60,000 nucleotides of DNA, taken from the NCBI GenBank assembly GCA_964187785.1, contig OZ076409.1, positions 32,242,001 through 32,302,000 of the forward strand, written 5' to 3'. The notes under the pieces are model-generated. The model ran no database searches. It had not been told where the DNA came from and worked only from the letters and a program-made list of their open reading frames with translations. This document shows positions 8,979-37,910 of the stretch, in pieces (position 1 is the first letter of the stretch; every line of letters starts with the position of its first letter). Source of the stretch: Amphiscolops sp. MND2022. Taxonomy: Eukaryota. Position numbers and translations under genes: made by a program.

Positions 8979-8997
8979 CATTGACGACCTAGAACCC

Positions 8998-15406: not shown

Positions 15407-15892
15407 TTGAGTAAAAGACGCCAGGAGTGAACAGCCCTAGCATGGAACTGAACCAATCAAACCCAAACTCACCAAGTACAACTTTAACCCCACCCAGCGC
15501 AATTACTAAAATACCACGCGCTATTTTAGTTACAAAATTTTGAATGCAATTAGTAATGTCTTTTCAATGCAATTACCTAGTAGGTAGGTCCCAGCTTGGT
15601 GCATGCCTGCCCATCAACAAAGAAGTGCAATTAAAGTCTTGCATAAAAACGTTCTTGACATTGCTGGTAGGTGACGTGAGAGTGATACCACCCCTCAAAA
15701 GAAGTCCTAAAATACCTTGAACAAATGAATTTTTTGCAAAACTGCATTTCATTCCCAAAATGACAAAAATGCTACATGAGACTTTTTATTTTGAAGCAGT
15801 AAAATTCAGAAAAGAAGCTGAAAAATGACGTTGCTAAATTTACTAAGTAAATAAGAATGCACCTTTCTCCGTTTGCCGAGGACGACAAACAA

Positions 15893-15906
15893 CGGCCCGG
15901 GGAGGA
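15893..15906 (+). promoter_or_regulatory. Polypurine tract (PPT) of A
   Basis: CGGCCCGGGGAGGA immediately before the LTR start TGTAAC. Confidence 0.8.
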
Positions 15907-16610
15907 TGTAACGTCCACCAGTCAACACCAAAAATTCTATCAAGGACCAAAAAGTGTGCGAATCAAAATGGCCGACCTAGCAGGTTGTTGAAATCAAAAA
16001 AGAACAGCAGAGAACGCAAAAAAGAGACCCCTTAGACGAGTAAGAGAAAAAGACGACACACCAACTGAGAAACACGTTGTGAGACGCGGAATTGTGCCAT
16101 CTCACTCGGAAATTGCAAGTTCTTTGCGACGAAATGGCCCGGGATCCAGATATTCCATATTCAAAGAAGAACTGGAAAACTGTAGAATCAATGAAAGAAC
16201 GCTGGAAAGGTCGGTTTTTATTGATCTTGATGTTATTATTGTTTATTTGCGGATTTATGGTAACGCAGGATCTGCTAGATCCTTGTGCTGGTACTTTTGA
16301 AGGTTATTTTCCTAATAAATTGCTTTCAGACTAAAACCCCGTTTTCGGACCTTGGAGGCATGTAGGACCGAGGGAACTCTTTAGGATACGTTTTTACATG
16401 CTTGTGGGACGTGTCCGGACTTTGAGTGTGCCGGCACGCCGCCACGGAGCTCTAATGTGGGGAGTCTCCACGGCGTCCTGGAAAAGTCCCTACTGAGACC
16501 TTTTAGGGATGAAAAGCTGTTGTTTAGGTTGTTATAAGACACCGGTCTCTTGTTAAACCATCCTGAGTATTATCCCAGTTCTAGAATGTAGCTGCTAGCT
16601 TGACGTTACA
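15907..16610 (+). repeat. 3' LTR of A (704 bp)
   Basis: TGTAACGTC...GACGTTACA inverted termini. Shares blocks with the C/D LTR (AATCAAAATGGCCGACCTAGCAGGT, GGATACGTTTTTACA). Confidence 0.9.
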
Positions 16611-17048
16611 TAAAAACTTCGATCCGAGTTGTTTCGATCCCATTCAAAAATTTGGTATGTCGACCTGAGGACTAACTCTGATTTTCGATCCCGTTCCTTC
16701 GACCTACTTCCGCCCACCCGACAAAAGTTCATGATATCTGATACTGGAAAAAATATGCTTTTGTTGATCATTTTGGAATGATACATCATCTTAGTATTTG
16801 CCTTCCGCATCTGCCGTTGACGCTTTAATGATACACATGGCACTTGATTGATGACGAAGATCCACGATATCAGATAAAGGAAAAAAATTTTGCCAAGAGA
16901 AAAAGCTGAGACTCAAGATCTATTGCGTCATCTGATATCTGATTGGCTGGCCATGACACTACCTGGCTAGCGCGAGTCTACAACACACTACGTTGTTAAT
17001 TTCCTGCATTAACCGTTCGCACAAAAATCGAGATTTTAGAATAATATT

Positions 17049-17765
17049 TGTAACGATAAGCGCTGGCGCTTGAACCGCGACTTAGAATGGAGGAACCAAA
17101 GCAGCGAATAGGATCCGGGACCTAGATCCCCGCGGCCCTGGCTCATTTTCCCTCCGAAGGAGCCTGTCCCAAGGTGGGGGAACCGTCTGGTAAGAAACTC
17201 TCTGGCCTGGTCCTAGTCTGTAATTGCTAAAAGCAACAGGCATCTTGCATAACTCAAGCCACTGCTCGACTAGCCTTTAAAAAGGGGGCTGAAAACCAAA
17301 GAAGGTTGAACCATAGTCTTGGAGAATCTGATAAAATCGACATCGCCAAATTGGGTAGATAAATACAGATATTAAGGGCAGCTCTCGAGCATATCAATTC
17401 ACTGCAAGGAAAAACATTATAAAATCAAGAGTTTCAGTCATTTGATGGAAAATGACCTCGGCTTCCCAGCGCTAGCGCAAGTCACCCCACAGGAAATTGC
17501 GGGGATTCTTAGACAAGCATCGGGAACACTGGTTTCTGCTACTAAAGCAACGTCAATCTCCCAGGGATGGGCCCAATACCGTGTTCTGCAGATGGAATAG
17601 ACGTCTATACAGTCGTCTCTTGTGCTCGTTCTTCGCGGGCGGCACTTTCTGCTTTTTGCCGTACGATTTTTGACAGGTCTTTCACCTTTAAAATGTTTGG
17701 GTGCCACGTCAGACCTTGAACGAATTTTTGCATCGAAAATTTCGTTGTGGGCAGTTGCCGTTACA
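17049..17765 (-). repeat. 3' LTR of B (717 bp)
   Basis: TGTAACG...CGTTACA termini, direct repeat of 36028-36731, adjacent PPT. Confidence 0.96.
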
Positions 17766-17778
17766 TCACTCCCCGGGC
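17766..17778 (-). promoter_or_regulatory. PPT of B
   Basis: Minus strand reads GCCCGGGGAGTGA then TGTAAC. Confidence 0.8.
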
Positions 17779-18524
17779 TTCTGGCTTGTCGTCCCTGGCA
17801 AGCGGCGTTCGGCCTCGTCTGGGAACTGCGTCAAACTGACTGCTGGGAATCATCATCCAGACATCAGGAGACAAGGACGAGTCCTTGTTTCTCAGCAACC
17901 ATTTCGGTCAATTTTCACGGTTTTTGCTTGAAGAAAATCTTACTGCCTAGGTATTTTTACAAAAATGCAAACGGGTTTTAGCACCAGCTCGAGAGCTAGG
18001 GTTTTCGGTCGGTTAAAACTTGTTTGGGCAAGTAATTTTCGCTAAAAACTTGTTTGCGACCGAGGTCAGCTAAAAATTTTTTGGCAATTCAGTATTTGCA
18101 GTTTTCAGTCAATTTCAGGCGGTTTTTAAAACTTCTTCTAGGAGCGCGCAGGTTTACTCAACAGGCAATTGATAGAAGACACTAGACGAGAAAAAAGATC
18201 GCGACTAGAGGGACTAACACTTCCTTTTGACTATGGCAACTCAAAAACAGCGCGAACGGTGCGCAACGAAAATAGCAGTTTTTCTTTAGTAATAGTTTCT
18301 TTTTTCTTGCTTTGTAATCCAACCAACTGGGGCAGGCGCACTCTATTGACCGTACACCCAGTGCAGCGCTAACAATACACTAACTATATAACTAGAAACA
18401 AAAGTTTGCACCTTGTATTGGGTAGCACCGATTAGAGTAATGAGTTTAAACGCACTGTCTTTGGCAGGGCATAAGTAAGTATAGAGTCTGCAGGGAGCGC
18501 GAACGCTCCCTTCAACGGCAAGGT

Positions 18525-21500
18525 TTACTGAGCTGAGCTGCGTCGGGTTCGCTCCTTTGAGGCATCACTGGAGGCTGCTTCAGCATTTTCTGTCGCCACC
18601 GACGCTCTGCGTTGAGAAGAGACTATCGTGACGGCGGTTTCCGAGTCAGACAGGTCCTCGGGGAGCGACAACTCAGCAATCGGCTGCACCAAGGCGGCGC
18701 CAGGGGTCAGCTCAGCTGCATGTTCTCCCGTCTGCGGCTTCGACGACTGGCGACTGGCTTGCGAGGATGGTGGACTAATAGGTTCCGGTTCCAAGATGTG
18801 GGTTGTCAGATCAATGGTGACGGGTTGATTCAAGGACATAGCCATCGTTGGCACGACCATGGTAGGCGCGAACGCCTGTTGTCTGGCAATCTCTGCTCTT
18901 CTCTCCACGGCTAACGAAACGCGTTTGGAGATCCAGCCAGGCTGGCTCCAGAGCTCGCAAGCTCGTTTCCATTTGGGGAAGCTGGCAATTTCCAGTTCTG
19001 GACAGTCTTCTTCCCATTTTGCACGTGCTTGGGGGCCCAGCACGGAATTGATCTCGTCGTGCAGCACGATTGACTTGTCTCCCAACATCGTCATTTTGCC
19101 CTGGGGCTTCCACGCAGATCTTCTGGGGAATGGAGTGATACGACACTGGAGGTCTTTGTCTGATTTGGGCGGCGCCCTCGATCCAACCCGGGATTTGTGC
19201 CAATTCCAGATGCTGAATCTGTCGGTTGAAAATTTCGGGGGCACGTCCGACGGGCTTTGCTCTCGGCCACCCCAGTGGTTCTTTCCAGTATCGGTTTGGA
19301 AGGGTGATGCATTTGAAACTTTATAGAGGGTCTATGGGTGGGCCAGCACTAGTGCTGGTGCGAATCACCTTTCGAATATTATCTCGGCTCCAGGGAAATC
19401 GGAAGGGAACTCCGTCCAGACTGAGGGGTGCGGAGTACCAATTGATAGGGCCGTGTTCTCGCGGCAGAGGGCATGCCTTCCTTGCACGGGCGCGCGAAAG
19501 GCCCATTAGGCTCTCCTCCAATTGCTTTTCCGATTTCCAAGTGGTGTACCCGTGCGGCATCTCGCCACTCAGCACGGCGTGCACAACTCGCGGGTATGCC
19601 AATGAAGGGCGTCCTTGGAAGTATGTGCAGAATGAGGCCATGTGCACTTGGACTGCGATGGCGAGGGATTTGGTGGGGTACCTGCACACGCCGATAGCGC
19701 CGAAGATGGGGGCCAACACAGGAGCCATGGCGGCCACAAAGTCTTCTACCTCGGCCAGCGTCAGGTCGGCAATTTGTTGTGGCATTGGGAATCCTGCCAC
19801 CTCCCGTGGGATTTGGCGGTCAGAACTGTGCAGGGGTTAAGACTGGTACACGCCCACGAATAAGCCAGAGGCGAATACCAGGGTCGAATATAACCAATGT
19901 TGGACGGACGCACGCATGCGTTCCGATTGGGCGGAATAATCCTGCTGGTCTTTGGAGGTCATCAGGTGCCCCCAACGGGTCAGGCTACGGAGTTGCCCTT
20001 GTGCGATGACTAGATAGCTGTAAAACGAGGTCAAGTTGCAAGATATCACGATGTCGACCAGTAGAGCCAGAGGGCCGGCTACGAACTTCGTCGGACCCAT
20101 CGTTAGCGCGAGCGCAAGCACTTCTCCAACAGTGGCTTCTCCGATAGTTTCCAATAGTTTATCAGCCTGTATATTGGTGCGTGAAAATTCGGCAGTTACC
20201 ACCTCAATGTTCCATCCCAGGCCGAGGCTGGTGCAGAAGGCTTCTATGGGACAGTTGAGTTCTCGAGCTATTTCTGCCAGGGTTCTGCTGACAAATCTTG
20301 TTTGGTACCATTGGGCGTACGTAGTGCCAGCGGCGTCGACCTCTGTCTTCAAGTTGGTTGCTTCGTGGGCCACGATATGTCTTAGACCTACAGGCAGCTT
20401 GACGGGCTCAATTCCCGCGGCAAAGTGAACCTGGGGAATGGTGCTTTCGACGGTGCGTGCAGCAGGCCACGCTCCAATTTGCTTCACCAATTCTGCCAGC
20501 TCCGTTTGTACGGGAATCTCTTTATCTTTGCGCACCAGCCAGTTGTAGCGACGGACAGCCTCGCGCTCAGTCACCTTGGACTCCCGCACGACGCGGATGC
20601 CATCCAGATCAAAGGCCATTCGTCCCATGCGCATGCCATGATCGAAAAGTACAGCATCGTCTATCTTTAGCTGTGCGTTTCCTGAATGTTCCACAGCGAT
20701 CAACACTCTGGAGATGGCAGCGAAGAAAGCTGGATAGGATAATGCATCAGGGCGTAGGTCCCCACGGTCCACTCGAAGGTTTGGGGCGCAGATGGCGAAC
20801 TCGATCCTGCGCGCCTTGCACACCTCTAGCAGGATGTAGACAAATTGCTGCAAACTCCGTTGCCAATACATGAATCCCGGTGGAGACACGAAGAGCGGTA
20901 GCGCTCCCAGGTGACCCCGAAGGATCCCTGCGGCATGCTCCATCGCGTCAGCAACGGCGTTTACTAGGGCGGCGGCATTTCCAGTTCCCCGGGTGTCGGT
21001 CATAGTAGTATCCAACTCGCGCAGCAACCCTTCGCACGCCATGTGATCCAGTAGATTGGCGAAGATTACGCGCTGTGGGGGCGGCTCCTTCAGTGATCCT
21101 CTCAAATTTGGATCGTACATTGCTCGGACCATCTCGGCTACTTCAGCGAAGCGGGATATGGGCATAGTTAGCACTAACACGTCGGGCATCAAATTGTCAA
21201 TAGGCAAGTCACTCTTGCAAGTGGAGTCGACTGCCACACAGTAGCGCGCACGCTGCAAGGCACCTTACAGTAGGGGCTTCATGGAGATGATGTTGCGGGC
21301 GTACCGGGCTTTCGCCTCCCACGTTTCACCTTCTCGAAGTATATACCGTGCAGGAAACTGCTCGGTGATGTTGTGCTGCAAGGGTGCCATGTAGTCATTC
21401 GGTGTTGCTGGCAGTTGTTCTCGAGCACGTTGCTCCCAAGCTTGCTCGGTCATGTCCGCATTACGGGGGCGTAGCAGCCGTGTGACCTGCGCTGCTATTG

Positions 21501-22761
21501 TGGTTCGATTTACCTCTTTCTGGTCTGCTTCGGTGAAGGGCGCTCTCCTTTTGATCGCACACATATTGGCATACAAGCGTTCAGCAGCCATCCAGATTCT
21601 CTTGCTATCATTAGTTACTACTGAGCCGGACACGTCGTCAGATGGAGGAAGGAAAACTGGCGGGTGGGCTTCTTCTATGGCTTCAGGGACTTCCAGAGAC
21701 ATGTTGGCGGGAGTCGTGCCCGAGGGCACAGAGCTCACTTCAGAGCCTGCATCTGGGGTTCCATATTGTTCGATAGCTTCCTCCATGGTCATTTGGGGCG
21801 CACCTCGGCCCAGGTGGCCTACACGATACAGAGGCCTAGCGATTACCACGCTTTTCATTTGGGGTCGAGGCACATCGGCACGCTTGTCCGGAGGGGGACG
21901 ACTGGTTGGGCTTTCTGTTGCCGAGCTAGTGTGTGCAATAGCGGCATCCTCACCGGTCAGTCGCTTTCGTCCTGCCTCTTCACAGGATCCAGCCACGGCA
22001 CTTCCACTTGGTCCAGCTGGGACTTCAACGTCCATGGATGCTGTCTCGACCAGAGAGGCGGGAGGGTTACAGTCCGAGGGCTGGGCGGCAGCCTGCAAGT
22101 AGGTGGCCAGACCAGGGATTCGTTGCTCCACAGCCCGGACAAAGTCGGAGGAATTGGGATAGTTGGCAACGGCCTGTAGCGCCACTATCACAGCTTGCTC
22201 GGCTGTACTTCGCCCGGTTAAATCTGGATTCGGTACTGGTGGTAACCGGGACCCCGAGGGCTCTCGATCAGAGACTGGTGAGTTAACAGAGGTTTGCAAC
22301 ACCATGTGCGGCGCCCTGTACGGTGCTCCAAAGGCGGGTGAGCCAGAATAAGTCGGCGTCATCGATACTGGCTTTGGTATTGGGGGCGGTGGCAATGATG
22401 AAAAGTTAGCAGGCACCATGCACAATGAGGCCTCTTGTTCGAATCTGGTGCCCTGGCTTGGGCCATACATCGCAGTGGACCGCTCGTCCAGGAATTGATG
22501 AGTTAGGTCCTGTCCGTACCAAGCATTGTTCAGACAAGTTAACGGGCGACGGTAACCAGCTACCTCCGTCACGATGGATAGGGATACGCCTGGCAGCGTT
22601 TGCATTGTCTCGAGCTGGGTGAGCAATGCAGCCACGCCAGCTACGGCCACTGGTGAAAGGCCGTTCCTCAACCGTTCTTCCACGTACTGGGCCTGATTGA
22701 CCCTCTGCGCTCGCGCAGGAGAGTTTCGAGGCCTAGCACTATGAGGCCCTGTTGCAGGCAT
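18525..22761 (-). pseudogene. ORF3 of B, ~1410 codons, SGNH-like domain, interrupted by stops/frameshift
   Basis: ORFs ending at 22761, 21258, 19800 and 19244. Motifs VAVDST, FANLLDH, FVSPPG, APNLRVDRGDLRPDALSY. Confidence 0.8.
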
Positions 22762-22797
22762 TTAGTTGTTTGGATAGTAAGTTATTAACTCATAGGT

Positions 22798-22818
22798 CTA
22801 AAAAGGACTAACGTTAGG
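22798..22818 (-). promoter_or_regulatory. Putative splice acceptor for ORF3 of B
   Basis: Minus strand CCTAACGTTAGTCCTTTTTAG, ~37 nt before the ATG at 22761. Confidence 0.5.
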
Positions 22819-23053
22819 CTTACAAAGCGCGTTTGGTGAGAGCTTGAGGCTCGTCTCCCATGTACAATAGAATGACACCGGCTCTATAAGGGAACCGTAA
22901 CAAACTTAAGTTCAAATCTAACTAACTAGAACAAAAAACAGTATATCGCAAAGACGTTACAAGTTAATATTTCAGTGAGAGAGTTCAAGACCCTTCCGCA
23001 GGTGCAACAATGATCAAAGGGAGGGGTAGTTAGGGGGAAGCGATGTGGTAAGG

Positions 23054-24593
23054 CTATTCCAGCCCTATACTCAATATCGACACATACACGCGGTTGTGCA
23101 AGACCACATGAATACCAGTGCCCTCAAACATGTTCGTTAGGGTGTGGTACAGATTGACCAACGAGAATGCGGGTCTCTCTGGATCCAGTATGGGCAAATG
23201 GACCCTTGCGGATCCTTTGTCCGTTAGGCACTGTATCAGGTGCGTCATACAACGCAAACAGTCATCAGTCAGCAATGGTGCACGCTGGCTTGCTCTGATT
23301 ATCAATAAATGAATACTCTGATTGCGATTGGGATTAATGTCAGGTGGGATGGTGAAGATCTCACCCACCTTAGGCCGTAGGGAAAACACATTCCCTTTGC
23401 CGCACTCCCGCAGCACATACCGCAGGGAAGCTGGATTAGTTTTCAGGTCAGCGGGGCACGCTAACACTATGTCGCCTACTACTTGCAAAAAATCGGTTAC
23501 GTCATACGAAATGTGTTCTGCTGAGTTTGGGTACAAGGCTCCCGGGTAGACTATCTCCACATCGAGCGTGACATTGCTCGATTATCACTGCTGGCTTTGA
23601 CCCATGTATCCAGAGTGCTCAGAGCGGCCTTCGGGGAAAGAGGAATCTCGAAAGTGTGAGTCCACTCATCCAGCAGTCGAATTCGGGGATAATTGGTGAA
23701 ACAGGTGATAATTAGTTCCAACCACCACGCGAATTTTGCCTTGCCTCGATACCAGTCAATGATGTGGAAAGAAAGTATCAAGTCCGCAGTGGTGAGGGTC
23801 CTTAGACCCTCTAGACAGGACAACAAGTGCAGCGGTTCCACTATCGCCTCCACTCGTGGAGCAGTAACCAGCAACCACCAATGCGGTGCTGGGCTATACA
23901 CCCTGCCGGGCTCCACATGAACTCCGTATTTATCGCATAACAGATCAGCAGTGATGCACCGGGCCATTTGCACGGGCTCTTGTTCGAAGTTGAATGATCC
24001 AAATGCAATGTTGCTGGGCACAGTGGGCATCACAGTGGCCAGGGTAAACTCTAGCCCCTTCCCATCGCTAGTCCACTCTTTGAATCGGGGACATGGGGCC
24101 TTTGCTACCCCAGGTGATGACAACTTCTCCAGAATGGTGTCCACCGGATGGTCTCCAGATCGTTCCACGGCGGAGTAGGTCTTCTCGGCCCTAACCGTAA
24201 GGCGGTGCACCAGATTTTCTTCCCGTTCTGGAGGAATGCCCCGGGCTCCAATGGGAACCCTCCGGTTCTCGTTTACGGCTAACAGGCAGAGGCAGTCTCG
24301 CAGTCTCGCAGCCCGCAAGTTCCGCATTAGTAGCGTGGCTGTCGCTTACTTCTCAGCTGGTATCTAGGAGCTTCAGAGGCCTCCGTCGGAGCCTCCGCAG
24401 ACCTTGGGGCTTCGGCTGCTGTTTCGGCTGGGACCGAAGTTTCGACTTTCGTTGGCGTTTCTTTCTTCCTTGTTCTTGCCTTTGCTCGGACCAGCCGTTT
24501 CTTTTGCGCCTTGGGTGGTCTCCTTCTCCCCCTTTTGAATGAAGGAGCGGTCACATGGGACACAGGGCGCACTGGACTGATCGTCACTTGCAT
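23054..24593 (-). pseudogene. Post-integrase Pol extension of B (AT-hook-like, Cys cluster, tandem macrodomain-like)
   Basis: KRGRRRPPK, PRY*CGTCGLRDCLC, RCITADLL..WLLVT and IVLACPADL..PKVGE..LLIIR..RVHLP..IHVVLHNR. Confidence 0.7.
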
Positions 24594-27500
24594 TGCTGAC
24601 AGATTTTAGAGGAATTTGAGGAACAGTTGGCCAGATGGGGTAATTGCTGAGGAAATCCGTTAACAATGGATTCGTCAACAAGGGTGCCGACGTTCCCGGC
24701 AACGACGACTGTTTCCCAGCCAGGAGAAGATACTTGTGGTGACGGAGAGCGCGCACGCTCATGGTCAGAGAATAGTTGAGGTAAGCGTTGAGTGGGTGAA
24801 ATCGATTGATCTGAAGAAAGCACGGGAATTTCAGGCTCAAATTGATCAGCATCGGCGGGATCAGGCGGTACCGGCAACATGACATCAGACAGTTCGTCGT
24901 CAGTACCCGAAGTGGAACAGTCAAACTGCTGATAGTGCATGCGCGAGCCTCCCGCGCAGAGTTTCGTGCGCAAGCGAGTGTCCATCCAGTGATGTCTGCG
25001 CGAAGGCAAAGACTCATCTGATGCCTCTGAAAGCAGTTGTTCAGTCTTGTACGAAGGTAGTGATTTGTTATCATCGACCACGTCGACGGAACGCTCAGGT
25101 TCAGGGTCCATGAGTACTACGACCTCTCCATTGTCCGCATGCGCTGCGGCAAGCTCCAGCGGTCCACTGTGGTGCGATTTGAGGCGCTCAAAATGAACCT
25201 TTTGGCCAGTGTCCAGCACATAGACACGACCGTCCTGAAAGATCTGTACCGCCTTGTGCGGGCCACGCCAAGCACGCATTAGCTTGGGGGAGCCTTTCTG
25301 CGGCACATAGCGGCAGAAGACCCAGACGAGCTCTCCCGGCTGGTAAGCTCGTGCTTGAATAGCGCAATCGTATTTCAATTTTTGACGCAGCTGAGCCTGT
25401 TGCGTATTACGTCGCACCAAATCGTGAATTTTTAGTTGGCGAGCCAACACATGATCGACGTACGCTTCATGCGTATCGAAGGATTTAGCTGCAAACTCAG
25501 GGTATAAAAAGGTAAGAGGAATTGCCTTCTCAACGCCCCGAGTTAGCATGTAGGGCGAGAAGCCAGTGGTGGCATGCCTTGTAGAATTGTAGGCACTCAT
25601 GACCTCATCAAGACACTGGTCCCAATCGCGCATGCGGCGCGAGCAAAAGACTTGCAGCAAGGTTAACAGCGTGCGGTTTTGGCGTTCTACCAAACCCTGA
25701 GTCCGTGGATGTCCTGCGGTGGAAGTCACTTTCGTGACGTGGGCTGCGTTTAAAAACTCGTTGGATACTTCGGCGGTCAAGTTCGGAGCATTGTCCGACT
25801 GCATACGAGTAGGTGTGCCATGACGGGCAAATAATTTTTGTAGCAGCAACCGAGACGTGGTCACAGCGTCATAGTCGTGATGACTGCAAGGAACCGCTTC
25901 CGCGAACTTGGAGAAATTGTCGATTATGACAAAGATGCCGGTATTGTTATTGTCAGAGGGGCAGATTTTCAGGTGGTCGTGCTGGACCAATTCGTCGAAG
26001 TATCCACTCTGGATGTGTTTGAGCTGGAATTGTACATCACCAGGCTTATCGCATACCTGTTGACAGGTGAGGCATTGGCCAGCATAGCGGCCAACACTGC
26101 GTCGGATGCCAGGCCATGTGTGACGTTCTTGAATCCAAGCGACCACTTTTGAAATGCCTTGGTGTCCCATGGCGTCGTGCGCATGGAACAAGATTTCGTG
26201 CTGGTACAGTTGAGGCATGATGATCATGCACGGACGTTCGTGCAGAAGGCGTTGGTTGGGAGTATTGCACACAAAGGACACCTTTTTTGTTGATAAACAA
26301 CAGATCCTTTTTCTGGCGAAAATAGTTACGTGCCAACTCACGCACGTTCTCAGGAAAGATGTCGTGGTCTATGGACTCGCTCTGCACCAATTTTTTTAGT
26401 GCTAACACATGGACATCACGGTTTTGAGCTAAGACCAAATCCTTAATCCCATGCACGGTGTGAGCATGTTCAAGAAGCTCAGTGTCGATGTCTCTGAGAG
26501 CAATGATTGAGTCACGTACAGCCGAGGGAGTACTTTGCAGCGTGGCTGCACTTGCTCCTGCAACTGAATACACGGTACGAGAAGGGACGTTAACAGCATG
26601 GGTTGGTAGCAAGTAGTCCTCGCTAGCCTCAGCCGTGATATCTATCCAGTCTTCCGGATAGTCTGGGTAGAAGTCTTTGTGCGACTGTAGCACGGGAGGG
26701 GGCTGAGGCGGTAAAGGCGCAGCTAACGCCTTCGCCTTCCTGTCCTGCCTGTTCGCACGTTGTGTACGGCGAAGCACGCGAAGCACTTGGTCAGGAGCTC
26801 TAGGCTCTAAATTCTGCAAGTGCGCAGGTAGATCGGGGTGATTTGGGATTATTCGACCTTGAAGGTTGAACCACGGGGCAATAGGGAGCTTGTCGAATTC
26901 GTCAGCTGAAAGGAAATTCCAACGCTCACCTGCGGCTGGCAGCTGCGCAAGCTGCTTTTCTCGCCATCGATATTCATTGGTTCGTTTGCTCAAGCCATCA
27001 GCGTTGCGATGCTGAGTTCGTGGGCGGTGTTCCACACGAAAGTGATACTTGTCCAAGGTCATAACCCATCGGCCAATCAACGCTTGGTCTGTGGAGTATG
27101 TTTTCAACCAGGACAAGGCTTGATTATCCACCCTCAGGGTGACCTTTCGAGGACAAAGGTAACTGTGATTTTTCACAATGAAGTAGTAGGCTGCAAACAT
27201 TTCCAGTTTGGGGGCTCCGTACTTAGCTTGCGTGGTGGTGAGTTTCTTGCTACCATAGACAATTGGTCTTAGGCGTCTTTCACCTGGAGGACCCTGCCAG
27301 TGGTGCAGGATGCCAGAGATGGCAACAGCGCTGGCATCGGTGTCCAGCACAAACTCTCCCTCGGAATCAGGCTGCGCAAGCGCAGTCGCCTCGATCAATG
27401 CTTTTTTGATTTCGTTAAACGCTTTTGTTGTTCGGGACCCCACGTGAAAGTAACGTTCAGCCCAGTGACGGCATGCAGGGGCACGACCAGCTTGGCGTGC

Positions 27501-30500
27501 CAGGGAATGAAATCGCGATAGTAGTTGGCGAATCCCAAGAAACTTTGCATCTCCCTTTTGTTGCGGGGGATCTTCCAGTCACGCAACTTGGCAACAGCTT
27601 TCGGGTCTGACTTTACGCCTTCTGCGGAGACCACACGTCCCAGGTACTTTATTTCTGATTTCATGAAGTCACATTTGGCTACGCGCATTTTGAAACCAGC
27701 ATTGCGGAGGCATTCAAAGATTTCGCGCAAGCGCGCCATGTGATCTTCCACAGTTTCGGTCGCAATCACGATATCATCGATATAGGCCATCACCATGCTG
27801 CCTTTGCGGTTGACAATCTTCCGTAGCGCTCGCGCTATTGCTCGCTGGAAGGTGGCTGATGCATTGCACAGGCCAAATGGCATCCGCCGCCATTCGAAAA
27901 GCCCTAACTCGCAGGCAAAAGCGGTCTTGTGGCGATCCGCCTTTCGCACGGGAATTTGCCAAAAGGCTATGCTGGTGAAAATTTTGGCGTTGCCCAGCCA
28001 TGCCAGGCTTTCATCGATGCGAGGCAAGGGGTAGGCATCCTTATTGGTTACCTCATTCAACGGGCGGAATTCGCAGCAAAAGCGCAACTCCCCGTTTTTC
28101 TTCTTTACCATTACGATGCCACTTGCCCAAGGGGACAGTGAAGGCTGTATCATCCCCAAGACTAGCAGGTTTCGCACCTCTTGGTCGGCGCGCTCTGCCT
28201 TTTCAGGGGACATCCTACGAGCACCTTCACGATGCGGTACAGCCCCAGGCTCCAGCTCCACCGTGTGTTTGGCGATGGTGCAGCGGACGATGTCAGCCTT
28301 ATGCTTCATAAACAAATCATCGAATTCATTGAGAATATTGCCTAGAGACTCGCAGGCGCTAGCGCCCCACAGGTTCTTAACCTCTTGTAACTGAGAGTCT
28401 GGCCCAGGAATTGGAGCCATCAGCTCCAGATCAGTGCGTTTACGAACTTCGCGTTCCGAAAGCCCTGCCTCACTAGGATCTGTCGAGGACAAAAACTCAA
28501 ATTGTGATGAAGAAGTCAACTCAGAAGCAGTGGATAGATTCATTTCACTGTACACTTTATAAACAAAATTTGCACGACTGTTGTCAGCTTCAGTTTCTTT
28601 GCTGGCCTTTGTAGGGGGTTCCAGATTCTGGGGCACAGCCTGATACACTAATGTCACAGGCACTACGGTGCCCAGTTGAACACCGCACCGCACATGCTAT
28701 GGGTTGCTGGTAAGGTTTATCAAACTCACGTACAATGTTCCTGTCTCACTGACAGTGGCCACGCTGTCCTCTAAAAAGACAACATTTTGCAATAAAGGAT
28801 CAGAAAATGAGGCGTTGAGCGCCACGGTCTGAAAGATCAATGGTTCAAGCGAGTCAGTGCTGAGCTTGGCTCTTGCTACTGTGCGCTCGAAAAACTGTAG
28901 GACCAAGTCGCTATCCAAGGCAACCGGAGTAGCTAGCGAAGTGTCACCTACCTGTGCGTGTGCATGATGCCAGACGGGCTTCACAGGTGCTCGCAGGACA
29001 ATTTTCATAGAGGTGAGATCGACTAGGACCTGACAGGAACGGAGGAAGTTCCGACCTAGCAGGAAGTCCTCCACACCCTTTTCATCGTCCACCACGACAA
29101 AGTTGGTTTCAAGCTCGTACCCTCCCAATTGGAAACGAATTTGCTCTGCCAAACCAAAAGTCTTTATTGTTTTTCCATTGGCAGCGTACAAGTCGACTTG
29201 ATAGGGCTTCAGGACAGTACCGGTTCGGGCAGCCACTCGATTGAAGGCGGAGAACGTCAATATTGATACGCCGGAACCAGTGTCCACCAATCCACGCAGC
29301 GGGATGAGTGCCGCATGGGGCACGACGAAAGAGACAACGAGCGACGCACGCTCGTCTATACGTGCCTCACCAGTGGGCTCTTGGTGGTTGATGTTGTAAC
29401 ACTTCAGTTCTTGGGGACCCAGGCATAGGCCAGGTGGGAATACATCCACCACCACGCAGGCCTCGAACTTCACAAACAAATCATCGAATTCATTGAGAAT
29501 ATTGCCTAGAGACTCGCAGGCGCTAGCGCCCCACAGGTTCTTAACCTCTTGTAACTGAGAGTCTGGCCCAGGAATTGGAGCCATCAGCTCCAGATCAGTG
29601 CGTTTACGAACTTCGCGTTCCGAAAGCCCTGCCTCACTAGGATCTGTCGAGGACAAAAACTCAAATTGTGATGAAGAAGTCAACTCAGAAGCAGTGGATA
29701 GATTCATTTCACTGTACACTTTATAAACAAAATTTGCACGACTGTTGTCAGCTTCAGTTTCTTTGCTGGCCTTTGTAGGGGGTTCCAGATTCTGGGGCAC
29801 AGCCTGATACACTAATGTCACAGGCACTACGGTGCCCAGTTGAACACCGCACCGCACATGCTATGGGTTGCTGGTAAGGTTTATCAAACTCACGTACAAT
29901 GTTCCTGTCTCACTGACAGTGGCCACGCTGTCCTCTAAAAAGACAACATTTTGCAATAAAGGATCAGAAAATGAGGCGTTGAGCGCCACGGTCTGAAAGA
30001 TCAATGGTTCAAGCGAGTCAGTGCTGAGCTTGGCTCTTGCTACTGTGCGCTCGAAAAGCTGTAGGACCAAGTCGCTATCCAAGGCAACCGGAGTAGCTAG
30101 CGAAGTGTCACCTACCTGTGCGTGTGCATGATGCCAGACGGGCTTCACAGGTGCTCGCAGGACAATTTTCATAGAGGTGAGATCGACTAGGACCTGACAG
30201 GAACGGAGGAAGTTCCGACCTAGCAGGAAGTCCTCCACACCCTTTTCATCGTCCACCACGACAAAGTTGGTTTCAAGCTCGTACCCTCCCAATTGGAAAC
30301 GAATTTGCTCTGCCAAACCAAAAGTCTTTATTGTTTTTCCATTGGCAGCGTACAAGTCGACTTGATAGGGCTTCAGGACAGTACCGGTTCGGGCAGCCAC
30401 TCGATTGAAGGCGGAGAACGTCAATATTGATACGCCGGAACCAGTGTCCACCAATCCACGCAGCGGGATGAGTGCCGCATGGGGCACGACGAAAGAGACA

Positions 30501-30990
30501 ACGAGCGACGCACGCTCGTCTATACGTGCCTCACCAGTGGGCTCTTGGTGGTTGATGTTGTAACACTTCAGTTCTTGGGGACCCAGGCATAGGCCAGGTG
30601 GGAATACATCCACCACCACGCAGGCCTCGAACTTCACATCTACGCCGTCCATTGTTGCGTAGACTGGCACTGTGAAATACGTCGTCAGGGTTTCAGATTC
30701 TCCAGGGACGTACCACTCTCGGGGACGGGGCAACTCGACTCGCTTGTAGAGGATGGATAATTCAACCCAAAGCTTCGCTAGGGTTAACGTTGGCCTGCGC
30801 ACTTGTTCGGCGGCTAGCATCAGGTGGATAGAGATCAACGCCCGTCCTTGTGGGTCGAACGTGGTAGGTTCTAAGCAGGTTTGATCTTGCTTGGCACCGC
30901 AAGTGATTGTTAGCGGGGTGTGGAATGCTGGCGGTTCCGCCGGATGTAGCATTATTACGCGATCATCCTCCAGGGGTACCGTGTGTGCGG
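24584..30990 (-). pseudogene. pol: pol of B (PR duplicated, RT, RNase H, IN), disrupted
   Basis: LVDTGSG (twice), YPLPRI, MPFGL, YIDD, LDTDAS, NADGLS, HDAMGH..CLTC, QSDN, GLVER. Confidence 0.95.
28310..30637 (-). repeat. In-frame 1164-bp tandem duplication spanning the protease
   Basis: 28310-29473 vs 29474-30637 are essentially identical. ORFs recur at a 1164-bp period. Confidence 0.96.
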
Positions 30991-31170
30991 CGACACCAGC
31001 CGACTCGACTTCGGGCCATCGATTGTAGGCGGATTCATCACCAGGTTTCGGGGCGTGGGAATGTTCGCCGCATTGCACATCAGCATAATCAAAGACTCCA
31101 CAGCTAGAGCATTGATGGATCCTGGGATAGCCCCGCAGGACACCATCAGTCACGTCCTCGGCGGTGATTT

Positions 31171-33488
31171 TCACGACTTCAGGTTCGGGGGCAGCCGGTG
31201 GTTTGCGAGTTTGGTCGCGACTGGGACAGTCTCGGGCAAAATGCCCAGTTTGGCCACAATTAAAGCAGGCATCCACAGGTAAGCGCACGGCAGGTTGTGC
31301 TGCTGCTGATTTGGCGGGGCAATGCTTGCCGGTGGGGGACGTATCACCCCTTGAGGTAGCATCTTTTTGTTGGGAGGTAGTGGTGCAAAGGGATGAGGTC
31401 TAAACCTCATAGCTAATCTGGGATCGTAGGGTTGTTGTGGGGGTTGCGTAGGTTTCGGGCGATTGCGCAGCAGTTGGCGGGTGGTGAAGCGCAGGGACTC
31501 CACCGTGGGTGATTCGGTCAGAAGGGCTTCCGAGGCGTACACTATGGCATGTTCCCGCCTCAATACTGGATCTCGCACACCTTCCATAAAACGCTGCAGG
31601 ATTTCATAACGCTTAGTAGTGATAGTCTCTTGCGGAAATCCCTGACTTCTAAGACCCTCTAGAGCGTCCAAATACTGCATCCAGTCTTCCTTTTCTTGCT
31701 GGACGCGGCATTGGAAGGGTTGCCGCACTTGCATGTGGTTCCCTCCAGCGCCAAAGCGACTGGACAGTAGCTCGAACACTTTCTCGGGGGTGTCGCGTTC
31801 AGATTCGGCTTTGTTGATGCTGTAATAGCGAGCTTCACCCTCGAGGTGACCAATGATGCTCCAGGCTCGGTCTTCGACCGAGACCTTGGTTTGGATCCTT
31901 TTCAGGTATCTCTGCATGATTAGGATCCATCCATCGATAGACCCGTCTTTGGAGCTGCGATACACGTTGGGCCTTGTTTGGGCCAAGTCCCTCCCTGCAA
32001 GCAGAGGTGCCAGTTCCTTAGACATGGCTTTGGATATGGCTGCCGTGAACCTCAGTTGCTCAGGGGAGATGATTTCTGCCTCTTCGTCCCTCGGTTCCAC
32101 CTCACGCGCTCAGCCCTCGCTACCGTGGCTGGCTTGCACGGATAGTCTCTTCTTTCTTTCGAGTGCTCTCGCGCAAGGAGTGCCCGAGGGCATTCCGTCG
32201 TCGGCTGTCAAGTATAATGAATCTGGTCCGGACACCGTGATAGGGGCCGTCATGTATGCGGCTCCATCAGTTTGGGACCCTAACGTGGCTTTGGTACTGG
32301 ATAAATCAACTTCGGCAGAGGAATCTAGATAGATTGTTGACATCGGGTCCACACCTTGATCTCGAGTGGTGCCTATTGCTGCAGAGGGCATCGATGAATC
32401 CGCTGAGTCGTGGGGTCCTCTCATCTGCACTCGTGCAGGTTTGCGCTCCGCGTCAGGCATGGTGAGCACTAAGTTCCCGGCTGCCCCCATTGCTTCGGGC
32501 CTCGGGCACCGTCGACCTGGAGGTGCTGGGTTTTAGTGCACTCACCAGTTCAGACTTTATCGCTCGATTTGGGTGCGGCAGTTCCGGGGCTCGGGCCGGG
32601 CCCCCGGTTTGCACTTCTTCACTCACGCTGGGTTGTCGCGGGAATGACCTCTTGCGCCTCATGATGTTGATGGCGTTGAGTACCGTATGCATTTGGTTAA
32701 TCAAGTCGTTGATCTGGGTCTCCACGCGCAACTCGCGGGCCATCAGCATATCGTTCATTTCGCCCATTCGGTGGCCTAATGCATCCATTCGAGCATTCTG
32801 CACGTTTTGCGCGGTACGCAACTGGTCGTTGACCTGCAACCTTTCTCGCATTGTCGTCTGCATCGTCCTGATGATCTCTACGATGGCGTGGTGTTGCTCG
32901 TTGCATTCAGCACGATTGCTGGCTAGCCCGGCTAAAGCGCGTTGGGTCTCGGCTTGGGCATCCAATAGTGCTGTTTTGCACACCGAAGACCGTTGTGACG
33001 AGGACACTGAATCAGTCATGCTCCGCACACGAGATGCCTCTGGGCGGCGCTGGCCTGCATTCACCATGGGCGGTCGAACTTTCTTGTGTTTTCCATAGGC
33101 ACATACTCGAGTGGGTCCTCGAGCGATCCCACGCCCTTGTGGTCTCGCATAACTCATCCCTCCCACATAGGTGAGGTCCTGGTTTGCTGGGATTCGCCTC
33201 CTCACCTAGGGGTGCGCGCGAGCACCCTTCCTCAGCGGCTAGTTCATTGGTCACATTTGAATTGGGCCAACCTTCTTCCAGCTCATTGGTCCTCTCCCGG
33301 CAGGTCTCATCAACCCATTGCTCTATTCGGCGGGAATTTCCCGAAACGACTGAACCCTCGGAGGGAGGAACCATAACGGCCAACTCCTCCTTGCGTTGTT
33401 GTTCATTGGTGACTTCGTCAGACATGACGTCTGAAAAACGTGAACCGTCCATCGAAGATTCAATGGTGACCCAAGACTGCGAACTCAT
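31171..33488 (-). pseudogene. gag: gag of B with long N-terminal coiled-coil-like region and CCHC knuckle
   Basis: GWILIMQRYL..AWSII.HLEGEAR..QYLDALEGLRSQGFP and CFNCGQTGHFARDC. Frameshifts present. Confidence 0.88.
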
Positions 33489-35994
33489 GTTGGATTTCAC
33501 CGGTTCTAGTGCGGCTAACACGCCTAATGTCAGCAACCGAGCAGGCGCTAGCAACTCAGGGGGTCTTGGACTATGTTTCCGAAGATGTCAGGGCCTCTAG
33601 ATCAAGATCAACCCTTCACTCGTCCCGGTGGGAACTTAAGAAAATTCATGTTTTTCAACGTCCAAGATTTTTCTAAACACGTTCTAAGGCTCGTAGGCTG
33701 TTCAAATTTGCACAACGCTTTTCCACAAGCACACTGGGCCAGAAAATTAACCTGGTTTGGGACAAAAAGTTCTCAGTCACTTGCAGCAAGAATTTCAAAG
33801 GATTTTTGGATTTTCCAAAATTCGCACAACAACACTTGAGAGGCTCGTGTGTGCGCCAGAAGCGCCGTATCAAGCCCAAAATTGACCAGCAGGTTTTAGG
33901 TACACGTAGGTCTACGAAAATGATCACAGTTTTGAGCTGCGCTTTTTCTACACCGTTTCACCTAGGTACGGACGTGCGGTACCACTATGTACCCAAATTT
34001 ACTGTTTTTCACGTCTTTCTCAATATTGCGGTCCACTGGAAAGAGCTAGCAAGCTCAAATTTTCTGCAGCGACGTAAAAACTAGCACAGGTTTTGATGGT
34101 AGGCCGCAATATAGCCCCACCCGTCGGCTAAGGTGCCCGGGTTACTCGGGAAAATTGAGAAAAAACTACCTTTTTGCCCACCTTTTTGGGTGCCACGTTT
34201 TTCCTATTTTCTCAACAAGTATCACACAGATCGGCATCAAACTTGGTAGTTAATGCCAGTGGGCACCTTCAATGCCACTAAAACGGTCGAATTGAAGCGC
34301 GAGCGTTTATTTGGGGTTTCGACCCAATATGTACGTTACACAAAAAAAACACTGTTTTTGAAGACTTTTTTCACAAATTGACCAAGAGGATCACCTCAGA
34401 AAGTGATACGGCGGGCAAAGTGGGACCAATGTGTTGCCCCACTATCCGTAGCACTGGGATAAGCTCTCAATTGGTGGTGCCCGTTAGGTATAAGGCACTG
34501 ACAGTCCTGCAGTTTTGGATTTTTTCGGTCCTCTTACGCTTCTCTGAAGTCGAAACGTCAGAGAGCTTTCCTCGCCTTTGGTGACCGATACGCTAACCAA
34601 ATTTTCGGCACTAACGTTAATTTTAATGGTGATTGCGAGAATGCAACCACTTTGCGGCTAGGGTTCAGGGATCGATGTCTCGACCATAGCTCAGAGACAG
34701 TCTGGTTTTATGGAAAATTGATCAAATTCAGCGCGTTTTTCCACTTTTCTCCGCACCAAATGAAAAATTTCACGCGCGGTTTTCACCACCACGCGTTGTT
34801 TTTACTATAAAAACAGAAAATGAGATCGTTCCTGCCCGCTCCCTTCAAACAAACTTTGCTCTCAAGACTTTCAGACAATGCACTTTCAATGGCTGAAAAT
34901 CACAAGTTTTCCGTACTGTATCAACCCCAGGCTGCCTGAATCCGCTACTAAAGTTGCAGTTAGTGTCCTGTGGGTTAGTTACGTTTAAAGCAACACCGTA
35001 CACCGCTTTTTTACATCTCTACATTTGTGTAGGTTCGTGTTTTGGGTGCCTTTTAGGCCAAGTTTCCACTTTTCCCTTACTTTTCTGGCACCAAATCGGC
35101 ACTTTTATTACCACTGAAGGCCAAAATACTGCCTTTCGTGCCTTGTACCAGTTTTTTGAGCCTTGTAGTTGCTTTTTTTGTAATTTTCACAAAGTTTTCC
35201 TGGTTCCATTGAGCACTAGTGCTCGAAACCAAGAAGAACACCGAAAACACGCGAAATTAAGGTTTTTCTCTCCAAGTGCCATCTTTTTCACAGAAAAACA
35301 CTTCGTGGGGTTCCGTTACATTTGTGATAAAATTTTAATGACCTGCACCAACGAGTCCTCGTCAAAAAAGGTGCATTTTCAAAAGTTTCGCCAACCATGA
35401 GCCATTTGAGCGACGCCTCTGGTCACATGGGGTGCATCTTCACCACGCTTTTTCTCCACATCTAGACCAGATAGAGACACGCGGTTTGGACCATTAGCAT
35501 CGTCTGCTGTTGCACTTGCTGTCCATCAAAAACCATGCCTCTAGGACGTCTCCACGAGAAATGAGAGTAAAAAGTAGGCAACACACATTTTGACCCTTCC
35601 CTCGCCTCGCTGGCTCGTGGTCAGCCATCCACCAGTTACCTTCTTGCATGGCATTAAATGGCTGAAAATAGCTTGAAAAACCTGTTAGACACCCGTAGCC
35701 ACGCGCTACGGTTCTCTGTACCTGCAAAAAATACCCGCTGATAGGTACACAACACATCACACAAAATTAGCAATTTCCTTATAAAAAACCTAAAAACACC
35801 ATTTTCGCAACTGAAAACGTGATTTTTTCGGCGTTTCCTCTGGTTCAACGCCTCTCCCGGTTCCAGTAGGACGTGGTACGACTAAAAAAGGCAAAACTCT
35901 GCTTCTCTCCTTTTCCAGAGTCGAAACGGGCTTGGCGCCGATCACCAGGGGGCCAAATCTTTTAAAAAACCGCTAGGGAAAGTTTCCCAAGACG

Positions 35995-36012
35995 ATCCCT
36001 CTGTGGTCGCCA
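35995..36012 (-). promoter_or_regulatory. Primer-binding site, tRNA-Arg-like
   Basis: TGGCGACCACAGAGGGAT is complementary to a tRNA 3' end ...TCCCTCTGTGGTCGCCA resembling animal tRNA-Arg(UCG). Identical 18-mer in D. Confidence 0.8.
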
Positions 36013-36027
36013 AAAAATGAGTTTCCA

Positions 36028-36731
36028 TGTAACGATAAGCGCTGGCGCTTGAACCGCGACTTCGAATGGAGGAACCAAAGCAGCGGATAGGATCCGGGAC
36101 ATAGATCTCCGCGGCCCCGGCTCATTTTCCCTCCGAAGGAGCTTGTCCCAAGGTGGGGGAACCGTCTGGTAAGAAACTCTCTGGCCTGGTCCTAGTCTGT
36201 AGTTGTAAAAAGCATAACTCAAGACCACTGCTCAACTAGCCTTTAAAAAGGGGGCTGAAAACCAAAGAAGGTTGAACCATAGTCTTGGAGAATCTGAGAA
36301 AATCGACATCGCCAAATTGGGTAGATAAATACAGATATTAAGGGCAGCTCTCGAGCATATCAATTCACTGCAAGGAAAAACATTATAAAATCAAGAGTTT
36401 CAGTCATTTGATGGAAATTGACCTCGGCTTCCCAGCGCTAGCGCAGGTCACCACACAGGAAATTGCGGGGATTCTTAGGCAAGCATCGGGAACACTGGTT
36501 TCTGCTACTAAAGCAACGTCAATCTCCCAGGGATGGGCACAATACCGTGTTCTGCAGATGGAATAGACGTCTATACAGTCGTCTCTTGTGCTCGTTCTTC
36601 GCGGGCGGCATTTTCTGCTTTTTGCCGTACGATTTCTGACAGGTCTTTCACCTTTAACATGTTTGGGTGCCACGTCAGACCTTGCACGAATTTTTGCATC
36701 GAAAATTTCGTTGTGGGCAGTTGCCGTTACA
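36028..36731 (-). repeat. 5' LTR of B (704 bp)
   Basis: Direct repeat of 17049-17765 with scattered substitutions and a ~14-bp indel. Confidence 0.96.
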
Positions 36732-37241
36732 GTTTTTCGCTGATTTTTTTGCCTTACACAATAATTGGTACCAATAATATTGAAATTAATGTTGCCCACA
36801 ATTATTTGTTAACAGCCCTGTATACTGCTGGCTTTCCATAAATAATGGTCGTTTTTAAACCCAGTGCCATGAATAATTTCCTTATATTTATGGCCATATA
36901 TACACTTTCCAATACCTGCACTGGGTACTGAATTCGGAGCTATAGATAGTCGCCGCTTATAATCGTCAGGCAAGCCTGAATAGTCCACTATCAGAGTCCG
37001 ATTGAAAGAAAAACTAACATGTAGTCTTCTGATAATGATCAAAGCCTCTATTCATGTAGATTCCTCTGCACTCGGCCAACATATAGGATGGTCGCTTTCG
37101 GCGTTGGTTAGTCTACAGTCATTTGTTATACCTTCATGCCTTTTGTATTCATACGCCGAAAGAAATCAGGTAAGTAATAGTGACTTTTTGAAGACAAATT
37201 TCATACTTTTACAGTTGAGGAACATTTTTCGAGGCAATTCC

Positions 37242-37876
37242 TGTAACGTCAGCCACTGGCATGACAAAATTTCGATGAAAAATTCGAATTGTGCGATATC
37301 GAAACAGAAGAATCAAAATGGCCGAACTAGCAGGTACGAAAAAGAATGAACAAAAAGAGAGACCACGCGGAGATCGAGCAAGAAACCGAGCACGTGTGAA
37401 AAAGTTGCAGAAAAAGATGAAGAATTGCCAGAAGATGAAGAAACATCAGCAGAAAGATGTTGTGGAATGTTGTGCCATCTCCTTGGGAAATCAACAACAT
37501 CTGCAGAGCATTGCCAGAGGCAAAAATGGATGATGGACTGAAAACTGTAACGTAACTGGGGACTATCCCCGTTTTTCTTTAATATTCCCCCTTTTTCTTT
37601 GGAATATTTGGATGATGTATGACCTTCCAGGTCTTTTTAGATCTTATTCATCAAATACGATGTTTTCCAGCTAAATACTGTTTTGACCTCGGAAGAATGT
37701 AGGAACTCGTAGGAACGTTAGGATACGTTTTTACAGGCTTGTGGGGCGTGTCCCCCTAGGAGACCATTTTGGGATCAAAAACTAGTGTCTAGGCATGTAG
37801 TAAGTCAACTGTCTCCTGTTTAAGCATCCTAGGCATTGTCCCTGTCCTAGATGTGCGTCGCTAGCCGGTCGTTACA
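37242..37876 (+). repeat. 5' LTR of D (635 bp, ~72-bp internal deletion)
   Basis: TGTAACG...CGTTACA termini, followed by spacer and PBS. Confidence 0.93.
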
Positions 37877-37892
37877 TCTGGAATAGTTTTTA

Positions 37893-37910
37893 TGGCGACC
37901 ACAGAGGGAT
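37893..37910 (+). promoter_or_regulatory. Primer-binding site, tRNA-Arg-like
   Basis: TGGCGACCACAGAGGGAT, same as in B. Confidence 0.8.

Follow-up and report, generated by a model that had tools for sequence, protein, structure and literature searches.

The window considered here, a stretch of 60,000 nucleotides from Amphiscolops sp. MND2022 (assembly GCA_964187785.1, contig OZ076409.1, positions 32,242,001 to 32,302,000), contains a decayed copy of a Ty3/Gypsy long terminal repeat (LTR) retrotransposon, element B, flanked by two relatives of the same clade, elements A and C. The clade of element B is abundant and recently active in the genome. The element lies on the minus strand at positions 17049 to 36731, and the span of 19,683 bp given in a preliminary description of this DNA is upheld. 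Since a copy-specific tandem duplication with a period of 1,164 bp (28304 to 30638, found by self-comparison of the window) is extra and ∼70 bp at 23557, present in all eight fetched copies of the same family, are missing, the net length amounts to ∼18.6 kb, against ∼18.5 kb in the earlier estimate. The 5′ LTR (36028 to 36731, 704 bp, with TG...CA ends) and the 3′ LTR (17049 to 17765, 717 bp) are 95.1% identical in a BLAST self-comparison of the window and differ by 20 substitutions over 703 aligned bases (Kimura two-parameter distance, 0.029). They are bordered by an upstream target site duplication (TSD) copy, AAC, at 36732 to 36734 on the minus strand and a downstream copy, AAT, at 17046 to 17048, with one mismatch between the two. 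Downstream of the 5′ LTR follow a 15-nucleotide spacer (36013 to 36027), an 18-nucleotide primer-binding site complementary to the host tRNA-Arg(TCG/CCG) (35995 to 36012), and a noncoding leader (33489 to 35994), AUG-poor in its 3′ half, which measures ∼2.54 kb from the LTR end to the first in-frame methionine at 33488. The gag-pol-extension region (23054 to 33488) and a separate open reading frame (ORF), ORF3, of ∼1,410 codons (18528 to 22761, broken in this copy) make up the coding part, and a purine-rich plus-strand primer tract (17766 to 17781) precedes the 3′ LTR. These coordinates agree with the ∼0.7-kb LTRs, ∼2.5-kb leader, ∼10-kb gag-pol-extension, and 4.2-kb ORF3 described before.

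The polyprotein region of element B begins with a PNMA-like Gag capsid region scoring below the cut-off (31327 to 32037) and a CCHC zinc knuckle (31205 to 31288), of which B shows one and the A, C, and E types show two. A conserved pre-protease domain follows (30536 to 30937). The protease and a dUTPase-like region are each present twice within the tandem duplication, at 30176 to 30514 and 29012 to 29350 and at 29825 to 30142 and 28661 to 28978, respectively. Reverse transcriptase (RT) with a YIDD motif (27488 to 28183), RNase H (27039 to 27440), and an integrase with a GPY/F-like end (25166 to 26260) complete the core. Pfam recovers the zinc knuckle, the doubled protease, RT, RNase H, and integrase of B in Gypsy order. 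Direct LTRs with TG...CA ends, a primer site, a purine tract, the Pol order protease-RT-RNase H-integrase with RT and RNase H of the Gypsy type, and an integrase with HHCC and D-D(35)-E motifs place the element in Ty3/Gypsy (Metaviridae); all of these traits are shared with known members such as the 25 Drosophila Gypsy families of PMC3276498. The integrase is followed by a low-complexity linker, an AT-hook-like basic patch (24441 to 24551; RGRRRP in B, RGRGRP in relatives), a conserved cysteine cluster of the form Y-x-C-G-T-C-G-x-R-x-C-x-C (24256 to 24365), and two α/β domains, a first, degenerate macro-like domain (23629 to 24048) and a macrodomain of the TARG1/DarG fold (23084 to 23533). The AT-hook noted previously is present as a motif, below the Pfam cut-off (E value of 0.35). 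The pre-protease domain, earlier called a pseudoprotease, retains that status only as a weak possibility: its profile matches the C-terminal motif of the element's own protease with an hhalign probability of 22% and an E value of 0.001 over 40 columns (control E value, 0.098), and the profile finds no match in the PDB. The region evolves with a ratio of nonsynonymous to synonymous substitution rates (dN/dS) of 0.04 to 0.05. The match of the dUTPase-like region after the protease is weak as well, with a best E value of 0.31 and dUTPases in 10 of 13 rows. Elements A, B, and C furthermore contain an insert of ∼200 amino acids between RNase H and the integrase zinc finger (26349 to 26948 in B).

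Many stops and frameshifts interrupt the reading frames of B, so that the single gag-pol frame claimed for it is unreadable from B itself. It does occur in relatives. At least five ORF3-bearing families are found in the genome, and 24 young copies, 6 each of the A, B, C, and E types, were fetched and chosen for their long ORF3 frames. An unbroken gag-pol frame of 3,111 to 3,269 codons is present in 7 of the 18 young A-, B-, and C-type copies and in none of the 6 fetched E-family copies, while the ORF3 frames comprise 1,400 to 1,527 codons. The spans are 18,883 to 18,902 bp for five of the six B-type copies (the sixth, with an internal deletion, measures 15,840 bp), 19,109 to 19,196 bp for the four of six A-type copies with both ends found, 18,755 to 19,301 bp for five of six C-type copies, and 19,205 to 19,736 bp for four of six E-type copies. 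Their LTRs measure 0.71 to 0.74 kb, with pair identities of 95.4 to 100%. The search for intact copies suggested earlier thus yields young relatives, some with unbroken frames and with LTR pairs up to 100% identical, and the architecture is repeated across four families with young copies. The B LTR leads to 2,421 first-look candidates with pairs ∼17 to 22 kb apart, and the five ORF3 queries lead to 2,917 to 4,040 candidates each, which probably overlap. In 40 evenly spaced 10-kb samples, matches to the clade at ≥72% identity cover 5.1% of bases (bootstrap range, 0.5 to 11.7%; families D and E not included in the library), and the coverages of ORF3 and the macrodomains each extrapolate to ∼5,000 copies from only 2 and 3 samples. 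The copies in the genome therefore probably number in the thousands.

In a quick RT-RNase H tree of 66 rows, built from database hits after 45 near-identical sequences of 108 had been dropped, elements A, B, and C fall together with their young relatives in a single group that has a Shimodaira-Hasegawa-like approximate likelihood ratio support (SH-aLRT) of 100. RT identity is 78 to 80% between B and A or C and 78 to 95% between families, compared to ∼25% for ORF3 between B and A or C. Synonymous sites are saturated between families, which argues for an old clade; together with the tree and the five ORF3 families, this bears out the earlier view of an old, diversified lineage with a common layout. 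The saturation also rules out recombination as the cause of the near-identical RT proteins of A and C. The clade nests in a wider group (support of 100) in which a single macrodomain follows the integrase of several Pols found in other assemblies, and a macro module stands at the end of 56 of the 62 top database Pol relatives. In a sister lineage (P0348 and P0372), Pol itself houses an SGNH domain whose GDS and DxxH motifs are intact; in P0372 this domain precedes the integrase. The C-terminal macrodomain of the lineage again has arginine at the lysine position. The queries used did not recover this lineage with an intact Pol esterase, sought as a control for the TSDs, from the Amphiscolops genome. 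The 3,697-amino-acid Gypsy Pol P0360, which stands at the base of the wider group, ends in a superfamily-1 helicase. An ESM Atlas search with the RT-integrase region returned only generic Gypsy Pol clusters.

The preliminary description did not mention the TSD length, the spacer that precedes the primer site, or that the leader is conserved and poor in AUGs. The TSDs were examined in 43 elements, 7 of which are unscorable with a truncated or interrupted end. Among the first 32 scored pairs, 26 show exactly 3 bp, 2 show 5 bp, and none shows 4 bp, with 4 imperfect pairs including that of B; mismatched pairs used as a control agree in 33 of 992 cases. Family E, fetched afterwards, shows 3 bp in 4 of 4 pairs, giving 30 of 36 for 3 bp and 0 of 36 for 4 bp overall, in contrast to the 4-bp duplications of 23 of 25 Drosophila Gypsy families (PMC3276498). 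For the bulk of the copies, the scoring rules out that the duplication is really 4 or 5 bp long and the LTR ends are displaced. Two copies (L053/L054 and L069/L071) have an exact 5-bp duplication (3 + 2) instead, and the same variation by ±2 is reported for Drosophila opus (PMC3276498). Since a review gives a range of 3 to 6 bp for LTR elements overall and of 4 to 6 bp for retroviral integrases (PMC10045372), a 3-bp TSD is rare, not unheard of.

An 18-nucleotide complementarity to a host tRNA is found in A, B, and C. The primer site matches tRNA-Arg in B and C, with the same site in E, and tRNA-Lys(TTT) in A. The distance from the LTR to this site is 15 to 16 nucleotides in all 14 copies measured, a spacer by which the cDNA end would be extended. 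The host genes for the predicted primers, tRNA-Lys(TTT) and tRNA-Arg (L133 to L170), occur in large tandem arrays with many anticodon variants, and the tRNA-Arg 3′ end gives 255 forward matches with a period of ∼173 bp. The leaders of the young copies are 2.65 to 3.13 kb long. In six of six leaders, sense AUGs are reduced to 19 to 50% of expectation, compared to 100 to 121% on the antisense strand, and the last 1.35 to 1.7 kb of the leader in young B copies is free of AUGs, except that a single copy has one immediately ahead of the start. The A and C leaders are 76 to 80% identical over 2 kb although silent sites are saturated. In an alignment of six sequences, the consensus structure is strongest at columns 480 to 960 (z down to −9), where the best window contains 7 compensatory pairs compared to 1.2 in shuffles; the more conserved block at 1,200 to 1,600 gives no structure signal. 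A 65-nucleotide noncoding motif common to the B and A/C leaders (74 to 83% identity; positions 1561 to 1625 of the L019 leader and 1378 to 1442 in A/C) lies inside the most conserved block and is possibly an internal promoter or packaging signal. Rfam shows no match in four loci. Conserved small ORFs are a feature of the 412/mdg1 leaders. Here they are ruled out, as no upstream ORF is shared between families.

The preliminary description had proposed tandem macrodomains at the end of Pol, and the second of them is confirmed as a fold. Its model has a mean predicted local distance difference test score (pLDDT) of 87 and matches with a Foldseek E value of 6e−9 and a template modeling (TM) score of 0.83; the profile match to TARG1 has an E value of 1.1e−5. 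In structural comparison with PDB entries 4J5R, 2LGR, and 5M3I, the domain shows the TARG1/DarG fold with Z scores of 15.5 (root mean square deviation [rmsd] of 3.0, 141 aligned residues) and 14.2. The adenine-binding aspartate is kept in 42 of 52 rows. Arginine occupies the position of the TARG1 lysine Lys84 in 48 of 52 nongap rows (of 73), with the residue number deduced from the PDB chain, which is offset by 6 residues, and K80 as the DarG counterpart, and the diphosphate loop GCGLD reads DPER in the clade. In TARG1, the mutation K84A abolishes the rescue function (PMC8501950). The outgroup Pols P0349 and P0351 keep both the lysine and the GCG loop. The macrodomain pair evolves with a dN/dS of 0.05 to 0.09 in unsaturated within-family pairs; purifying selection is strong, with the catalytic lysine lost to arginine. 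The first α/β domain resembles SARS macrodomain II and an aminopeptidase N-domain with Z scores of 6.8 and 6.6 and matches the second macrodomain with an hhalign E value of 0.036. These matches are weak, and a tandem arrangement with a degenerate first member is no more than likely. Pfam finds neither a macro nor an SGNH family in the ORFs of the window or in natural longer ORFs, and PDB searches with single sequences yield nothing.

ORF3, described earlier as SGNH-like, is confirmed in its fold. A model of residues 470 to 1170 has a mean pLDDT of 58 with a confident α/β core (20668 to 21327 in B), for which VIA-align gives a best Z score of 11.2 (rmsd of 4.2, 182 aligned residues) and lists GDSL/SGNH proteins almost throughout the 50 rows shown. 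Foldseek likewise ranks GDSL/SGNH proteins first, at E values above 0.001. With the SGNH blocks located by motif in the fold of the model, the serine is kept in 31 of 31 rows and the asparagine in 32 of 33, whereas the block V histidine position is arginine in 41 of 42 nongap rows (of 46). The loss of the catalytic residue in both accessory modules is a point absent from the preliminary description. The core accounts for ∼15% of a protein of 1,400 to 1,530 amino acids and evolves with a dN/dS of 0.04 to 0.07, compared to 0.04 to 0.12 for a conserved part with predicted helices and one hydrophobic stretch (19573 to 20400), again in unsaturated within-family pairs. A splice-acceptor-like site, a pyrimidine run with AG, stands just upstream of ORF3 in B (22798 to 22808), and 16 of 18 loci have the acceptor TTTT(C/T)AG in the 550-bp stretch surrounding the start of ORF3, compared to a frequency of 0.125 per kb in gag-pol. 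Matches of the ORF3 profile to designed PPR proteins are ruled out, since significance is reached in no individual stretch and the modeled structure there is α/β. A metagenome scan with the ORF3 profile confirmed 0 of 60 stretches, and the ESM Atlas gave no usable match for the SGNH core.

Taken together, B is on balance probably a decayed member of a clade of 18.6- to 19.7-kb Ty3/Gypsy elements that is abundant, has been active recently, and makes 3-bp TSDs, and both accessory modules of this clade, having given up the canonical catalytic residue, likely serve as binding modules. The loss of these key residues makes binding helpers likelier than enzymes. A genomic RNA of ∼18 kb would run from LTR to LTR, and its AUG-poor leader may be traversed by scanning or shunting. 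This RNA would give one Gag-protease-RT-RNase H-integrase-extension polyprotein of ∼3,150 to 3,250 amino acids, in the single frame observed in the relatives. The predicted primer of reverse transcription is host tRNA-Arg in B, C, and E and host tRNA-Lys in A. The integrase would trim ∼15 bp from the U5 end, as the spacer suggests, and cut the target with a 3-bp stagger, a geometry to which the observed duplications point. The AT-hook, cysteine cluster, and macrodomain pair most likely anchor the integration complex on DNA or chromatin and read or mask ADP-ribose marks rather than erase them. ORF3 is likely expressed from a spliced or trans-spliced subgenomic RNA, consistent with the acceptor in the sequence, and most likely acts as a noncatalytic lipid- or RNA-binding helper that moves or organizes the unusually large particle, rather than as an envelope fusogen.

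A more far-reaching proposal, to be taken as tentative, is that an undescribed giant Gypsy lineage has re-engineered its integration step, with a 3-bp stagger, trimming of ∼15 bp from the cDNA end, the AT-hook and a disarmed macrodomain pair that reads or hides host ADP-ribose marks as guides, and a disarmed esterase and conserved 2-kb leader allowing an 18-kb genome to be packaged and translated. The length of a TSD mirrors the geometry of the complex between integrase and DNA, and a clade that uses 3 bp in thousands of copies could serve to ask what determines target spacing. If true, the proposal would make the lineage a natural test case both for the factors behind target spacing in retroviruses and for a defense against transposons by ADP-ribosylation in invertebrates. 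Disarmed enzyme folds kept at a dN/dS near 0.05 point to the host functions engaged, be it ADP-ribose marks, membranes, or RNA granules, and an 18-kb RNA with short LTRs stretches the limits on packaging and reverse transcription that are considered for LTR elements. Common settings of structural LTR finders require a TSD of at least 4 bp and cap the span at 15 kb. Intact members would thus escape annotation, although the clade may fill ∼5% of the genome.

Several observations weigh against the interpretation of a 3-bp clade with binding modules. Six of the 36 TSD pairs deviate from exact 3 bp, B (AAC/AAT) among them, and all pairs were read from occupied sites without empty alleles. The tree comes from a quick search without named reference clades. 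The first macrodomain reaches no more than the Z score of 6.8 and E value of 0.036 given above. The ORF3 model is poor overall, with residues 236 to 329 and 502 to 701 below a pLDDT of 50 and an unreliable C-terminal half; Foldseek searches against the PDB and viral libraries give no match at an E value of ≤0.001, with no fusion protein among the matches listed. The one conserved hydrophobic stretch of ORF3 (Kyte-Doolittle score of 1.8 to 2.3) would allow a membrane-anchored role. The catalytic serine is kept, and an invariant histidine after the block III Asn-x-x-Asp (33 of 33) might substitute for the lost one; the arginines in place of lysine and histidine could support altered chemistry rather than none.

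The last point leads to the reading of the accessory domains as active enzymes with rewired sites, in which the macrodomain frees integrase or cDNA ends of host ADP-ribose marks and ORF3 aids membrane crossing as a lipase or acyltransferase. Both well-kept folds, the strong purifying selection, the retained adenine-binding aspartate, and the conserved serine, block III asparagine, and nearby histidine of ORF3 are in line with it, as is the proposal that the GDSL ORF3s of the Vesta elements of bdelloid rotifers aid membrane passage (PMC5408684). Vesta, however, keeps all four S-G-N-H residues (PMC5408684), whereas ORF3 carries arginine at the block V histidine position and the macrodomain combines arginine at the Lys84 position with D-P-E-R in place of the GCGLD loop, which makes active enzymes unlikely. 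Apart from these residues, Vesta is similar to the B clade in that pol is followed by a separate ORF3, which has an SGNH fold and takes the place of env, and its ORF3s are typically expressed from spliced RNA (PMC5408684). The Vesta paper nowhere uses the word "macro" (PMC5408684), in contrast to the macrodomain pair of the B clade. TARG1/OARD1 and DarG (PMC8501950) share the fold and the adenine-binding aspartate with the second macrodomain, which differs in having arginine for the catalytic lysine, its replaced glycine loops, the degenerate macro-like domain preceding it, and its fusion behind the integrase. The OSK domain of Drosophila Oskar is catalytically inactive and binds RNA. It shows an SGNH fold with a Z score of 7.9 to the ORF3 core (PDB 5A4A); OSK belongs to a host germ plasm protein, and the resemblance is an analogy of function only.

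That the elements belong to a Gypsy clade already catalogued in Repbase, GyDB, or Dfam with the same layout and 3-bp TSDs is improbable. The range of 3 to 6 bp in the review (PMC10045372) implies that some 3-bp families are on record, and the macro-bearing Pols of other assemblies form a wider group. On the other hand, database relatives above 44% identity have no element name attached, and two divergent ORF3 matches in the databases, both checked, map 100% to the Amphiscolops genome, so that neither stands for an ORF3 from another host. The full-text literature, with most subscription journals and Repbase outside the search scope, contains no description of this combination; a published acoel genome gives a Gypsy share of 28.2% without element-level description in the part drawn on (PMC6451197).

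The B clade can be set beside known systems. The preliminary description stated that most animal Gypsy elements are far shorter. LTR elements are traditionally limited to near 10 kb (PMC6431247), and in comparison to this norm and to Drosophila Gypsy (PMC3276498), the B clade shows ∼19 kb, a 3-bp TSD, a 15- to 16-nucleotide spacer, the macrodomain pair, and ORF3. At ∼18.6 kb, B is large but no size record, as Burro/GYPSM1 of planarians exceeds 30 kb with an internal region of up to 25 kb (PMC6431247, PMC11410931), compared to 18.6 to 19.7 kb in the B clade. Burro is likewise a giant animal Gypsy with thousands of copies, one long gag-pol polyprotein, and a dUTPase-like region between protease and RT (PMC6431247), the position of the weak match in the B clade. 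Its additional BIR, ankyrin, MATH, BCL2, and env-like parts are contained in a 4,873-amino-acid ORF1 (PMC6431247), whereas Pfam scans of three full polyproteins of the B clade show none of these families and the extra parts lie after the integrase and in a separate ORF3. The plant Ogre elements are similarly large, with 16 to 25 kb in total and extra ORFs, but owe their length to 1.9- to 6.5-kb LTRs around an interior of 11 to 13 kb (PMC6431247), unlike the 0.7-kb LTRs and 17.3- to 18.3-kb interior found here. Epsilon-like endogenous retroviruses of fish carry macrodomains as additional ORFs, and the portion of that paper drawn on mentions no SGNH ORF3 (PMC4977317).

An envelope-like function of ORF3, as in Gypsy elements of the errantivirus type, in an infectious endogenous virus spreading between cells is improbable as well. 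The env position of ORF3 behind a splice acceptor, its large size, its conserved hydrophobic stretch, and the high copy number speak for it. Against it stand a confident core that is SGNH-like rather than a fusion glycoprotein, ∼380 residues downstream of the hydrophobic stretch, and no N-terminal hydrophobic signal sequence among the top hydrophobic windows of ATG-initiated ORF3 proteins.

The neighboring elements show the same domain order as B, in agreement with the shared layout noted before despite clear protein divergence, and both are incomplete in the window. Element A (1 to 16610, plus strand) begins before the first base, with its 5′ end outside the window, and ends in a 3′ LTR at 15907 to 16610. 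Element C (40830 to 59378, minus strand) has a 3′ LTR at 40830 to 41546 and a rearranged 5′ end, with the 5′ LTR missing at the expected place. An inverted C-type 5′ end with LTR, primer site, and leader (37242 to 40786, plus strand) abuts the 3′ LTR of C, and a short palindrome at 40777 to 40850 joins the LTR end and spacer to their own mirror image (within 37242 to 41546). Positions 56053 to 56676 are an exact repeat of 59377 to 60000. In element A, a gag segment of 1,292 bp is present in three tandem copies with 97% identity (204 to 4091), and internal tandem duplications of kilobase size are also found in B and in other copies (L013 to L018). Element C contains a 198-bp tandem repeat in 2.5 copies (46863 to 47359) within an AT-rich insertion of ∼1.8 kb between pol and ORF3.

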